A stretch of 64,000 nucleotides of DNA from Bdellovibrionales bacterium (GTDB lineage: Bacteria; Bdellovibrionota; Bdellovibrionia; Bdellovibrionales; UBA1609), in the NCBI GenBank assembly GCA_965199825.1, contig OZ241329.1, positions 2,048,001 to 2,112,000 on the forward strand, read 5' to 3'. Positions within the stretch are counted from its first letter, which is position 1. Each line of letters starts with the position of its first letter. The notes under the pieces were generated by a model, which was given only the letters and a program-made list of their open reading frames with translations, did no database searches and was not told where the DNA came from. Below are positions 32,107 to 58,157 of the stretch, piece by piece. The translations under genes and the position numbers were made by a program.

Positions 32107-33424
32107 AGTCGGACTTTTTGGTCGGCCCAACGTAGGTAAATCAACTTTATTTAATATGCTCACGAGGAGCCGCAAGGCTCTCGTCAAAAATGAACCCGGT
32201 GTGACCCGAGATCTCTTGATTGACCGCGCCGACTGGTGGGGACATCAGTTTGAAGTGGTCGACATGGGAGGGGTGACCGAATCAAAAGAGGGTTTTGCTC
32301 CGTTGATTCGCGAAAAGGTTTTGTCGAACCTGCACAGCCTTGATCTTTTGTTGGTGATCATGGACGCGCGCGCCGGCGTCTTGCCCGAGGACAAAGACAT
32401 TTTGCGACTCGCCAAAGAATCTGGGAAACCTTTTTGTTTGATCGTCAACAAAGTCGATAGCGAAACTAACATCACCAATTTGACTGCCGAATTTTTTGAA
32501 TTTGGACTCGATTTTTTTACCACCTCATTTGAAAAACGGGTGGGTGTGGATGAAGTGGTCGAGTGGGTGATTCGCCATCTTGAAGACAAAAAAGCCGAAG
32601 AAAAAACGGGCCTGCGCATCACGATCTTGGGTAAGCCCAACGTGGGCAAAAGCTCGCTTTGCAATTATTTGTTAAGAGAAAATCGACTGCTCGTTTCAGA
32701 CCGTGTCGGAACTACGGTCGATGCGGTTGAAGTTCCACTGACCTACGACGATAAGCCTTATATTTTGGTTGATACCGCGGGTTTAAGACGCCAAGCGAGA
32801 CGAAAAGACGGAGTCGAATATCTCTCGGCCCACATGTCTGAAGAAGCCATCCGTCGCAGCAATGTGGTGTTGTTGGTGGTCGACGCGACTCATGGTCCCT
32901 CAGGTCAAGATGTCAAAATGGTGGAACTCTGTCTTGAGCTTCACAAAGCGGTTATTTTAGTCGGCAACAAAATGGATTTGAGCGACAATCGCACTCAAAC
33001 AAAAGAAAATTTTGTGCGATTGATCGAGCGTCACCTCCGATTTTTTCCCGACATTCCATTTTGCTTTGTCAGCGTAAAAGAAGGAAAAGGATTTCGCGGA
33101 TTATTCAGAACGGTCGAAAATGTTGCGGTTCGATTAAAGCAAAAAATCAGCACATCAAAACTCAATAAGTTTTTCTTTGATGTGATCCGTAAAGCTCCGG
33201 CACCTGTTTGGGGCTCATCCAACGTTAAATTTTATTATTTGGTTCAGACTGGCCAACTTCCTCCAAGTTTTATTGCTTTTGCCAATCATCCCCAGGGCGT
33301 AAATCCTTCTTACAGAAAGTTTATTTCAAAACGTCTTAAAGAAGAATTCGATCTGATGGGAATTCCGGTGCGTATATTTGTGATGCCTTCGCATAAAACT
33401 CAACTCGAAGAGAGTCGCGTTTGA
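32084..33424 (+). CDS. der: Ribosome biogenesis GTPase Der (EngA)
   Basis: Two G-domains: GRPNVGKSTL and GKPNVGKSSL. Confidence 0.96.
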   Translation: MSLRTLNRVGLFGRPNVGKSTLFNMLTRSRKALVKNEPGVTRDLLIDRADWWGHQFEVVDMGGVTESKEGFAPLIREKVLSNLHSLDLLLVIMDARAGVLPEDKDILRLAKESGKPFCLIVNKVDSETNITNLTAEFFEFGLDFFTTSFEKRVGVDEVVEWVIRHLEDKKAEEKTGLRITILGKPNVGKSSLCNYLLRENRLLVSDRVGTTVDAVEVPLTYDDKPYILVDTAGLRRQARRKDGVEYLSAHMSEEAIRRSNVVLLVVDATHGPSGQDVKMVELCLELHKAVILVGNKMDLSDNRTQTKENFVRLIERHLRFFPDIPFCFVSVKEGKGFRGLFRTVENVAVRLKQKISTSKLNKFFFDVIRKAPAPVWGSSNVKFYYLVQTGQLPPSFIAFANHPQGVNPSYRKFISKRLKEEFDLMGIPVRIFVMPSHKTQLEESRV

Positions 33425-34791
33425 AGCAAAAGGCATTTGGAACCCGCGCCGGGTTTTATTTAGCCTCATTAGGTTGCGCCTTTGGAATTGGAAATCTTTG
33501 GCGCTTTCCTTATGTGGTTTATGAAAATGGTGGCGGGGCTTTTGTTTTTTTATTTTTTTTAAGTCTTTTTATTATCGGATTGCCGCTGATTGTTGCGGAA
33601 CTTGCAATCGGCAAAATGACCGGCCATTCGAGTGTTCTGGCCTTTGAGCGTCTTACAAACTCAAAGCCAGCAAAAATTTTGGGTGTTCTTTCAACCGCAC
33701 TGACTGTGTTTGTTTTAAGTTATTATGCGGTAATCAGTGGTTGGGTGCTCTACTTTTTTTTAAAATTTGCGTCCGCTATTGCAGCCTTTCAACCGCTTGT
33801 TGCAACCGAAACGCTTCAGCTGTTGCAAGAATCTTCCGACCTCCAAATCTTTCTTACCTTCGCTCACATATGTATCGTGGTCTATATTGTGGCTCGCGGT
33901 GTTCAGCTCGGAACAGAGCGCTTTATCGGACTCTTTATGCCGCTCCTGATCGCGCTTGTTTTTTTACTTTGTGCCAAGGGCTTAAGCCTTGAACATGCAT
34001 CAGAGTCTCTTCATAGTTTTTTGTATCCCGATTTTTCAAAACTTAACGTTTCAAGTTTCGGAAAAGCTCTAGGCCAAGCCTTGTTTACCCTTGGTGTCGG
34101 CTTTGGATCGATGGTCACCTTTGGAAGCTATCTCAATGATCGGGTTTTTATTCCATTTGCCGCATTCCGAGTGGTCGCGCTCGATGCTTTGCTTTCACTT
34201 TTTGCAGGCATTCTCATTTTTCCTTTGATCCACTGGACACCCTTGACTCCTCACGGCCCCGATTTGCTTTTTCAAACAGTCCCTGTGTGGCTGGGCTCGT
34301 TGGCATTTGGAAAAGTATTTGGAGCCGCATTTTTTTTATGTCTTTATCTTGCAGCAGTGGGAGCGAGCCTTGCTCTATTTGAAGCTGTTGTGGCCAATCT
34401 CCAAGAAATCTTAAAAATCTCACGCAAAAAATCAGCAGTGTTTGCAGGCCTCACATGTCTGATTTTTTCGTTGTTGAGTTCTTTGTCGAACACAACTTTT
34501 AAGTGGGTGTCCTACCAAGGCAGAGGATTATTCGAAATTGTCGACTCGGTATTGATTGATGTTTTGTTGCCGATTGTTGCACTTATTTTGTGTTTGATTA
34601 TTGGGAAACATCTCAATCGCCCAGAGATTGTGAAATTGGTGATGAGCGAGCCCAGTGCGGAGGGTGAGCGCGTTTTGCGTCAGTGGGTTTGGCTGATCCG
34701 GTGGTTTATACCGGGGATGGTGGTGGTGGCGCTAGCAGGTCAACTTTACTCCCTCCAGCTGGCCCCTTTAATTGTTTTTTTTGGCGGCTGA
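33421..34791 (+). CDS. Sodium-dependent transporter (NSS/SNF family); last ~9 codons and stop supplied by the IS
   Basis: GCAFGIGNLWRFPY..YENGGGAF; many TM helices. Confidence 0.92.
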   Translation: MKQKAFGTRAGFYLASLGCAFGIGNLWRFPYVVYENGGGAFVFLFFLSLFIIGLPLIVAELAIGKMTGHSSVLAFERLTNSKPAKILGVLSTALTVFVLSYYAVISGWVLYFFLKFASAIAAFQPLVATETLQLLQESSDLQIFLTFAHICIVVYIVARGVQLGTERFIGLFMPLLIALVFLLCAKGLSLEHASESLHSFLYPDFSKLNVSSFGKALGQALFTLGVGFGSMVTFGSYLNDRVFIPFAAFRVVALDALLSLFAGILIFPLIHWTPLTPHGPDLLFQTVPVWLGSLAFGKVFGAAFFLCLYLAAVGASLALFEAVVANLQEILKISRKKSAVFAGLTCLIFSLLSSLSNTTFKWVSYQGRGLFEIVDSVLIDVLLPIVALILCLIIGKHLNRPEIVKLVMSEPSAEGERVLRQWVWLIRWFIPGMVVVALAGQLYSLQLAPLIVFFGG

Positions 34792-34808
34792 TTTTAATCT
34801 CCAAAATT

Positions 34809-35735
34809 TTAAGCTTCGAGGCCCATCAGATCTAAAAATATGCGGTGGGATTTCTTCGGCTGAATTATAAATTCATTATGATAAAAGGTGTAGATCGCGA
34901 GATGGTTGTTTAAATCCTCAATCTTTTTTGTGGTGCACCAAGTTTTTCGCGACATTCTTTTTAAATTGTCACGAATCATGGCACAAGTGTGGTTGACAGT
35001 GAACAGAGGATCAAAGCCTCCTCGCTTCAGCTCTCCTTGTCCAACAATACAGCCTCTTCTTCCTTTAAACGTCTTATGCTCGTGCTGCTTGAAATGCTTT
35101 TTCATGTCTGAAACATAGTGAGGATTTTGGTCCGAACGAAAAACGCAGTCCTCTCTGATTAGAGGTTTAAGCTTAAGGAAGAGTCTTTGACGAGCTTGAG
35201 GTCTTTCATCTTTCCGGTGGCCGTACTTGATCCGAGCCTTCTTACTCAACAAACCTTTGGCCGGCATCTGGCTGCATTCTGAACCAAGAATGCGCCTGGT
35301 TTTTTTATCAACAGCAAGACTGATGGAGATGGGCTTACATTTCGTATGTTCAAAGGTTTCCATGTCGTCGAACTGAACCTCGGTGACGTTTTGATCATGA
35401 ATTTGTTGGTCTAGAAAACAAAATGAGAGATTTGCAAGAAATCGAAACTTTCGAATCACAGTTTTACGATTCGTTCTCAACACAAGCGCAGTTCTTCGTT
35501 TAGAAAAGCCACCGCAGAGTTTGTGATAAATAGGAATATTTAAAAATCGTTTCCTTTGACGGTAACAAACTTCACGGGTCGCACTTGAAAAACTCTTCTT
35601 ACACCCTAAACAGCAGTAGCGCTGAATCCATTTTTGATCAGATTTTCGAAAAAAGAATCCGGCTTTGCGAACACGCATCCGCTCTTTTCCGGATTGTTTT
35701 TCGCATTCGCAAACGGGATTTGATCTTTGATTCAT
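34809..35735 (-). CDS. IS1-like transposase (Zn ribbon, HTH, DDE-fold), single ORF
   Basis: CEC...CLGCKKSF; SKRRTALVLRTNRKTV; VQFDDMETF; FRSDQNPHY; VNHTCAMIRDNLKRMSRKTWCTTKK. Confidence 0.85.
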   Translation of the reverse strand: MNQRSNPVCECEKQSGKERMRVRKAGFFFRKSDQKWIQRYCCLGCKKSFSSATREVCYRQRKRFLNIPIYHKLCGGFSKRRTALVLRTNRKTVIRKFRFLANLSFCFLDQQIHDQNVTEVQFDDMETFEHTKCKPISISLAVDKKTRRILGSECSQMPAKGLLSKKARIKYGHRKDERPQARQRLFLKLKPLIREDCVFRSDQNPHYVSDMKKHFKQHEHKTFKGRRGCIVGQGELKRGGFDPLFTVNHTCAMIRDNLKRMSRKTWCTTKKIEDLNNHLAIYTFYHNEFIIQPKKSHRIFLDLMGLEA

Positions 35736-35748
35736 TCCTGATCAGAAG

Positions 35749-35764
35749 AGCAAACCCTCGGCCA
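35749..35764 (-). promoter_or_regulatory. Sigma54 -24/-12 promoter inside the IS, upstream of the transposase
   Basis: TGGCCGAGGGTTTGCT (GG-N10-GC), ending 13 nt before ATG 35735. Confidence 0.6.
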
Positions 35765-35786
35765 CAAACAATTAAGTGGGCCAGCT

Positions 35787-36512
35787 TTAGAAGTTTACGC
35801 CCAGGATTGCGAGCACCGTTATAAAATCCCCCTTCGGATAAAACCCCGTGTGCTCATTGTTGGCCAACACAACCTCTGAATTTTCGTTGGCGAAATTAAC
35901 CAGTTCATAAACAGCTTGGCCACCAAAATACATTTTGTTTCGCATCATCGGAATTTCAATTCCAACGCCCACATCAAAACCCAATGCATTATCCTTTGAG
36001 TAAGCCCCCTCGGCCACCACGGTTGCGGTCCGATAGACCTCGCTAAATCCGCCGAGCAAATAAGGATTTAAGGCTGCAAGACCACGCGTTACGTTTTGGG
36101 TGTTAAGATAATATTTCAGTGACATCCCGATTGCCGAAATATTGGCATCGCCATGAACCTGTGTGCCTGCGCGTGAGGTGTAACTGATCGTGTGATCACC
36201 GGTTAAAAAATTAATTTGCAATGCAAATCGCAAATCGAAAAAATAACTTAAGTAAAGACCGTAGGCCGGTGCACTTTGATAGAGTTGCGACATCGTTTCG
36301 GTTACGACGCGATATCCACCCAAAAATCCAATGGTAAAAAAACGTCCGTTACGAAAAAAGTTGATATCGGCTTCTTCATCTGAGGCCTGATCGAACTCAC
36401 TGTAATCGGCAAAGGGATCGTAGGTTTCGTCAACCTCGGATTGAGCAACCTTGAATTCGGTTGCAAATGTTGGACTAAAAAATATTTGAAGAACAAAAAT
36501 CAGACCTATCAT
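35787..36512 (-). CDS. Outer-membrane beta-barrel protein
   Basis: Signal peptide; alternating beta-strands; C-terminal LGVNF. Confidence 0.8.
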   Translation of the reverse strand: MIGLIFVLQIFFSPTFATEFKVAQSEVDETYDPFADYSEFDQASDEEADINFFRNGRFFTIGFLGGYRVVTETMSQLYQSAPAYGLYLSYFFDLRFALQINFLTGDHTISYTSRAGTQVHGDANISAIGMSLKYYLNTQNVTRGLAALNPYLLGGFSEVYRTATVVAEGAYSKDNALGFDVGVGIEIPMMRNKMYFGGQAVYELVNFANENSEVVLANNEHTGFYPKGDFITVLAILGVNF

Positions 36513-57677: not shown

Positions 57678-58157
57678 ATGAATGTGAAGGAAGCCCGTCC
57701 CGTCGACCATTCGATTGTCATCATGACGGAGATGGTGCTTCCGAGTCACACCAACGCTTTAGATTCTATTTTTGGCGGTGTGATTATGTCTTGGATCGAT
57801 ATTGCCGCCGCAATTTCAGCACAGCGCCATAGCGGATCACAAGTGGTCACCGCATCGATTGATGATCTTCATTTTGTCCAACCCGTATACAAAGGTTGGA
57901 TTGTGAATCTCAAGGCTTCGGTGAATTTTACGGGTCGAACATCAATGGAAGTCGGTGTTCGAATTGACGCCGAAAATCCAATCAAAGATCAAACCTTTCA
58001 TACGGCTTCGGCCTATCTGACTTTTGTAGCTGTGGATGCTCAAGGTAATCCTGTGGAGATTCCGCAAGTGATCGCCCAAACCGAAGATCAAAAAAGACGA
58101 TTTGCCGCCGCTCAAGTGCGGCGAAAATTGCGACTCGAACGGCGCAAAAAGTATTAG
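57678..58157 (+). CDS. Acyl-CoA thioesterase (YciA hotdog family)
   Basis: N..IFGG.IMSWIDIAA, VVTAS, GRTSMEVGV, AYLTFVAVD. Confidence 0.92.
   Translation: MNVKEARPVDHSIVIMTEMVLPSHTNALDSIFGGVIMSWIDIAAAISAQRHSGSQVVTASIDDLHFVQPVYKGWIVNLKASVNFTGRTSMEVGVRIDAENPIKDQTFHTASAYLTFVAVDAQGNPVEIPQVIAQTEDQKRRFAAAQVRRKLRLERRKKY

Follow-up and report, generated by a model that had tools for sequence, protein, structure and literature searches.

An IS1-related insertion sequence family of Bdellovibrionota with 9-bp target duplications and frequent placement at host stop codons

We analysed a stretch of 64,000 nucleotides from a Bdellovibrionales bacterium (assembly GCA_965199825.1, contig OZ241329.1, positions 2,048,001 to 2,112,000), which is called the window below. 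In it, an insertion sequence (IS) lies between the 3' ends of two convergent genes, one encoding a sodium-dependent transporter of the NSS family and the other an outer-membrane beta-barrel protein (OMP). A first-pass annotation of the window had described a complete IS1-like element at 34757..35790. The element is real, carries a single open reading frame (ORF) of 308 codons, sits at a convergent stop-codon junction and belongs to an apparently uncatalogued IS1-related group, but its ends have to be placed differently (Table 1). We consider it probable that it is an intact member of an IS1-related IS family of Bdellovibrionota, of which the ends read NNA(A/G)CTG(G/C)CC..., which duplicates 9 bp of AT-rich DNA in relatives of the window copy, and which likely aims at gene 3' ends, above all at tight tail-to-tail junctions.

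Table 1. Coordinates of the element, its parts and its flanking genes in the window
Feature	Position	Strand	Remark
Whole element, 1034 bp	34755..35788	-	Ends set by the family offset, 4 nt outside CTG
Downstream terminal inverted repeat, NSS side	34755..34777	+	CCAG-CTGGCCCCTTTAATTGTTT; contains AGCT
Upstream terminal inverted repeat, OMP side	35766..35788	-	AAAG-CTGGCCCACTTAATTGTTT; first AA completes the OMP stop
Putative surviving copy of the 9-bp target	35789..35797	+	AGAAGTTTA; fits the AT-rich target profile
Transposase, 308 aa	34809..35735	-	N-terminal Cys (zinc-finger-like) region, helix-turn-helix (HTH), RNase H core
NSS-family sodium-dependent transporter	33421..34791	+	Last 11 residues, QLAPLIVFFGG, and TGA encoded by the element
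Outer-membrane beta-barrel protein	35787..36512	-	Weak TIGR04565 match; full-length, ending ...GVNF*

The genome of the window is called G000, and other genomes, loci and contigs bear labels beginning with G, L and C, respectively. For the first set, 108 loci were gathered, of which 80 could be scored with both ends and flanks; the other 28 were dropped because they had no end pair, lay at a contig end or were duplicates. A second set of 60 loci, fetched after the first, gave 51 scorable elements, 1 of them duplicating a first-set locus. The element ends were anchored on CTG, so that the conservation of CTG is by construction.

A perfect 9-bp direct repeat, located 4 nt outside CTG on both sides, was found in 14 of the 80 elements (13 sites), and it was the sole signal in the scan of offsets; across 1000 shuffled pairings the count never rose above 1. 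The second set replicated it at the same offset (12/51). At the empty site of G081 there is one AGAACATTT, where G072 (L091) and G075 (L092) hold the element between two copies, and for the element of G094 (L099) the empty sites of G102 and G105 likewise yield a 9-bp overlap. From the repeats and the empty sites, the element starts 6 nt outside GGCC throughout the family, and the window element therefore spans the interval given in Table 1. The left boundary may be off by about 2 nt, since the three closest sister copies end in AAAG, ACAG and AAAA rather than in CCAG.

The first-pass annotation had instead read the element as GGCC...GGCC, inserted into an AGCT target that was duplicated as 4 bp. 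This reading is very improbable. AGCT does precede each GGCC in the window, and it stands on both sides in two sister copies and in one other genome; a distant relative without the element (L206) reads TAGCTTTAGAA at its NSS-OMP junction. However, the four bases form a direct repeat in only 4 of 80 relatives, all of them with the palindromic AGCT (1/51 in the second set), and 76 of the 80 homologues lack AGCT direct repeats, an outcome that the annotation itself had named as refuting. They are inverted in 77 of 80, and the ends read AACT...AGTT in 73/80 and 48/51. Among the six G000 copies, three have AGCT/AGCT, one has AGCT/AGTT and two have AACT/AGTT, the last being inverted and not direct repeats. 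The 9-bp duplications lie further out and the empty sites hold no ARCT core, so that neither an AGCT duplication nor AGCT targeting stands at the family level. The caveat in the same annotation that AGCT may belong to the terminal inverted repeat proved to be the correct reading. The 17-mers quoted there agree at 15 of 17 positions, and the inverted arms 34757-34777 and 35766-35786, AGCT included, comprise 21 nt and are 90% complementary.

It had also been argued that excision of the element restores an in-frame stop to the NSS gene, in the geometry of a native junction elsewhere in the window. Removing 34761-35786 indeed gives CTC CAG CTT TAG, and the native junction at 58154-58157 is a TTAG overlap. 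This support is weak and not independent, because the TTC-TAA end of the OMP gene alone sets the TAG at 35788-35790, which would have a chance of about one in three of falling in the NSS frame. The TTAG geometry adds little, because overlapping or abutting stops are the commonest convergent geometry in G000 (214 of 407 convergent junctions; median -4). We also tried a model in which the element inserts bluntly between AR and YT, makes no duplication and has the ends CTG...CAG. It would explain all six G000 copies, none of which has a duplication; the 9-bp duplications and the empty sites of G081, G102 and G105 set the ends 4 nt further out and refute it, leaving it next to no probability.

The NSS-side flank of the window element reads TTACTCCCT, and the partner of AGAAGTTTA is absent there. 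We infer that the window copy has lost its target duplication. Losses can be followed in relatives: at the empty sites corresponding to L089, an element without duplication, 4 of 4 relatives carry 15 bp extra, and for L095, likewise without duplication, 4 of 5 relatives have 18-38 bp extra while the fifth holds 1053 other bases. The L095 element replaces the entire spacer between two stops. Among E. coli IS1 copies, a duplication of 8-10 bp was present in 29 of 60 and absent in 31. Element-driven deletion of adjacent DNA is typical of IS1 and is the likely cause of the missing duplications here, ordinary small deletions being an alternative. When the 9-mers of the copies in G336, G341 and G267 were matched against one another, no swapped partners appeared, which leaves recombination between copies unsupported as the cause. 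For L096 and L097 the empty-site search recovered a single flank, and the relative of L093 has a remnant, not an empty site.

Two other loci hold related structures. L173 (G085) is a 46-nt remnant starting with one element end, at the place where G087 has a full element. L163 (G094:C4, about 392700-393740) is a different insertion, of 1053 bp, at the convergent junction that is filled by the element of G103; it had no clear match to the family transposase.

Contigs of other sequencing runs span the left junction of the window element (X1, X2 and X4) and the right one (X1, X2 and X3), so that an assembly artefact is ruled out. No empty allele or circle junction was listed for the window copy or its sister at C1:2255 kb in runs X1-X4, where contigs reveal presence only. 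No convincing promoter or terminator was found within the element, signals being at the level of shuffled sequence. The outward sequence TTAGAAGTTTA is common to window 35787-35799 on the OMP side and to the downstream flank of the sister copy L055 (G000:C1:2256198-2256208). Both flanks complete an ...NF* stop, and their orientation fits neither duplication partners nor a simple inversion; the sharing is likely due to chance, through the target preference.

Placement at stop codons was scored with open frames of at least 100 codons; stop positions were counted from the first element base, and the intervals used were -3..+1 and -12..+3. In the pooled set of 125 elements with at least 400 nt in both flanks (250 ends), a host stop lay at -3..+1 in 117 ends (47%) and within -12..+3 in 109 elements. 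Gene 3' ends were present on both sides of 86 elements and on neither side of 5. Scored by itself, the first set gave 67/157 ends and 64/77 elements for the two intervals, and the second 52/100 ends and 46/49 elements. As to gene orientation, the neighbouring genes were convergent for 51 of 76 elements and divergent for none. The terminal 4-mers of the elements (n=157) were TAAA in 47, AAAA in 37, AGAA in 26, CAAA in 11 and GAAA in 8; TAAA, AAAA and AGAA either are stops themselves or complete a stop that begins with T. At L091, L095 and L099, of which the empty sites are known, the stops are the native ones.

Null models were computed on G000 with simple ORF calls. Intergenic models, whether or not weighted by the target profile, gave 2-8% per end, and restricting insertion to convergent junctions that were short or given equal weight raised this to no more than 13-16%. 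The values per element were 11-34%, and 65-82% for weighted convergent gaps of at most 150 or 60 bp. As controls, IS3 elements of the same class scored 1 of 86 ends (-3..+1) and 2 of 43 elements. E. coli IS1 had 0 of 120 ends at -3..+1 and 11 of 60 elements within -12..+3; here 12 of 13 stops were IS1's own, at +2.

On these results we lean, by a little, to targeting rather than selection alone as the origin of the stop-codon placement. The competing explanation keeps the same element, ends and 9-bp duplication and dispenses with targeting. That is, any AT-rich 9-mer would be entered, only copies at gene 3' junctions would last in compact genomes, and deletions would trim the spacer up to the stop. 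We hold this to be possible but doubtful. The copies are old, none being identical among the pairs compared, and the null for short convergent gaps is high per element, as given above. Exact stop adjacency was found in 104 of 208 ends without duplication versus 14 of 48 with duplication, as a trimming ratchet predicts; trimming therefore adds to the pattern. However, elements that still bear the duplication, and are thus untrimmed, were at stops in 21 of 23 cases, versus 18-34% under the all-intergenic and all-convergent nulls, and no null exceeds 16% per end at -3..+1 against the 47% observed. Moreover, two distant members entered one convergent junction in separate events, one on each side of the same TAG: L099 in G094, and L140 in G103, a 1197-bp member that is 35% identical to the query and has a near-perfect 9-bp duplication of its own. 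The same-class IS3 shows no such pattern.

Several points nevertheless weigh against our interpretation. Duplications are lacking in 66 of 80 and 39 of 51 elements, and the window's own locus has no empty site found, its history being read from relatives. Up to 36 of the 117 stop-adjacent ends might be split genes, as an upper bound. The weighted null on convergent gaps of at most 60 bp reaches 82% of elements, which is near the observed 87-91%. The control copies are mostly young (99-100% identical for IS3 bar one pair, and for about half of IS1), and the controls do not exclude selection, because the family copies are older and have been exposed to it longer. A bias of ISs to convergent gene pairs is already published and is read as selection (PMC2942039); adjacency within 1-3 bp is reported for 28 of 30 IS families and is given the same reading (PMC13548323). 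Finally, the assignment of Asn-248 described below depends on a register with InsB made by eye, the profile comparison being weak (E 0.097).

Insertion might proceed as follows. With the zinc-finger and HTH part of the transposase bound to the inner repeat, its RNase H core would cut at a fixed distance, leaving the outer two bases free. The A-rich ends (TAAA, AAAA and AGAA) would complete or replace the host stop, and the gene would be left whole. Later deletions beside the element, likely of the IS1 adjacent type, may remove a single copy of the target together with the spacer as far as the neighbouring gene's stop. In the window, the OMP gene kept its full length through T+AA; on the NSS side the native stop and the duplication are gone, probably along with 0-3 codons, and the gene now ends inside the element.

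The flanking genes were compared with those of relatives. Among related NSS loci, an OMP gene lies convergent within the fetched flank in 12 of 19, and 3 of these have a 4-nt overlap. The relatives' OMP proteins end as the window's does (G-V/I/F-N-F-stop), and their NSS proteins, read by eye, mostly end 0-3 residues past the position of the window's YSL. The OMP gene is therefore whole, its TAA consisting of one host T and two element bases, and the NSS protein now ends in 11 element-encoded residues. Among 60 relatives there was no congeneric genome of G000, and the relatives' NSS genes, at most 51% identical, are too distant for a base-level reconstruction of the junction. Four long NSS-OMP gaps of relatives contained no family transposase.

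In the transposase, Asp-123 and Asp-202 were present in 125 of 125 elements, and Glu-126, Glu-235 and Asp-242 are also nearly invariant. Cys-9, Cys-42 and Cys-45 are conserved, in keeping with the zinc finger and HTH of the IS1 type; HTH models match up to 21 of 119 members, weakly, and the predicted structure has helices at 63-114. Asp-202 aligned to the TDG of InsB in the weak profile match (E 0.097), and LRQHLARLGRK of InsB aligned to IRDNLKRMSRK of the family. In InsB the Glu of IERH, which we take to be its third catalytic residue, precedes that Arg by seven residues; the family has Asn-248 there. An Asn in this register occurred in 124/125 elements, 119/119 close homologues and 139/141 aligned representatives of 50%-identity clusters, and Asn-248 in 26 of 26 duplication-bearing elements. 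From the conservation pattern, catalysis likely uses Asp-123, Asp-202 and a non-standard third residue, either Asn-248 or, alternatively, Glu-235 or Asp-242.

The transposase had no Pfam match, and PF03400 had none in G000; PF12762 did not match the query, and its matches to 7 of 119 members were weak (E 0.0047 at best). The NCBIfam IS1 model NF033558 gave 35.7 bits (E 8e-9) against a cut-off of 100. In the ESM Atlas, unnamed Bdellovibrionota clusters came first and PF03400 clusters next, these being the nearest named ones. No solved structure matched by sequence. In the AlphaFold model (pLDDT 86), the RNase H core resembles the ISCth4 transposase most closely, with a Foldseek E of 8e-5 and a VIA Z of 13.3, at a root-mean-square deviation of 8.2 over 253 residues.

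The transposase is under purifying selection. The ratio of nonsynonymous to synonymous substitutions (dN/dS) was 0.02-0.17 in all pairs except the two closest (0.41 and 0.59, with few changes), and, unlike in the IS3 controls, no identical full-length copies were seen among the pairs compared. An ORF of at least 270 aa is intact in 125 of 130 elements, and four G000 copies have dS >1.4 with dN/dS near 0.07 or lower. Such values would also fit copies kept for a benefit to the host, domesticated or semi-domesticated like RAYT genes and, for example, separating colliding convergent transcripts, with an Asn site of little activity; the orthologous-site pair L091 and L092 has a dN/dS of 0.12. We regard this explanation as unlikely. 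The range of the family is patchy, up to about 22 pieces per genome are 91-99% identical, the 9-bp duplications include fresh ones, and different species have the element at different sites. Purifying selection is in any case expected from a transposase acting in cis, as stated for IS1 (PMC12903888), and this would explain it without host benefit. At the site shared by L091 and L092, the element dS is 0.24 and that of the flanking genes 0.52-0.59; repeated insertion, later replacement and retention under selection are candidate explanations.

G000 contains five paralogues with 58-83% protein identity to the query. One sister copy, L057 (G000:C1:2351014-2351933), has a frameshifted transposase and perfect ends. 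Two degenerate elements of about 80-100 bp, resembling miniature inverted-repeat transposable elements, have paired family ends and no transposase (G000:C1:624719-624820 and 185004-185083); in both, one of the ends lies at a gene stop. Solo ends without transposase remnants nearby lie at G000:C1:772230, 2236066, 2657795 and 1294981, and the first of these completes a gene's stop codon. Two copies of roughly 55 bp, 1077 bp apart at G000:C1:709400-710700, are unrelated to the element, bar a chance AGCTGGCCCC, and are probably parts of tandem paralogous genes.

Beyond G000, 4069 homologous proteins were found at E <=0.001, and clusters formed at 50% identity numbered 528 (E up to 1e-30). Of 390 genomes examined for the class, 123 contained the family, and of 301 for the phylum, 102 did; the named records are assemblies of Bdellovibrionales, Oligoflexia and Bacteriovoracia. 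Some NCBI homologues are labelled 'IS1 family transposase' or 'transposase'. Plasmid and phage collections and E. coli genomes gave no family match. No description of the family, or of a DDN insertion-sequence transposase, was found in the literature searched, which left out most subscription papers (the IS1595 family paper included).

Taken together, we put forward, tentatively and as a less than even proposition, that a phylum-wide IS family actively docks at host stop codons and uses the first bases of the element to rebuild the stop, its safe harbour being defined by gene structure rather than by a fixed site, and that the RNase H transposase driving this needs neither the canonical third Glu (the site being DDN or having a relocated acid) nor a conserved terminal dinucleotide. 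A large family without a Pfam match means that elements are easily missed and host C-termini silently rewritten. Whether targeting or selection governs IS placement near genes is an open question, for which this family, with nearly half of its ends on a stop, is an extreme case. If targeting is true, it would be a natural route for inserting DNA without breaking genes, and an invariant Asn at the third catalytic position, in elements with fresh duplications, would widen the known DDE chemistry.

Among known systems, the closest solved fold is that of ISCth4, of the IS256 family (PDB 6xg8 and 6xgx), with about 10% identity and a family transposase about 100 residues shorter. In IS1595 elements, one ORF encodes a zinc finger, an HTH and a catalytic core, and the target duplication is 8-9 bp. 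The present family resembles them in its single ORF, similar domain order and duplication length, but it lacks the N..E..W motif of IS1595 and its ends are unlike the IS1595 subgroup signatures.

Compared with IS1 (E. coli IS1A, InsAB'), the family shares the 9-bp duplication, often absent, and the order of zinc finger, HTH and RNase H core. It has one ORF with no -1 frameshift between InsA and InsB, although single-ORF IS1 members exist. It is about 1.0 kb long against 768 bp, and its ends read NNARCTG where IS1A has GGTGATG/GGTAATG (GGT(G/A)ATG), that is, without the initial GG. Asn stands in register with the third Glu of the IS1 DDE triad, for which another conserved acid (Glu-235 or Asp-242) may substitute; the IS1 model score is below its cut-off and PF03400 has no match. 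We therefore do not file the family as IS1, since it departs from it in triad, ends, frameshift and model score. Stops coincide with 47% of family ends and with 0/120 of E. coli IS1, and the family sets itself apart from IS1 by its free terminal dinucleotides, the invariant Asn at the likely catalytic-Glu position and its placement at gene ends. The domain order of IS1 is that given in PMC12428005. The general bias of ISs to convergent genes goes in the same direction, with 18.3% of all ISs between convergent genes according to PMC9208149; it is far stronger in this family (51/76), whose ends supply bases of the stop codon.

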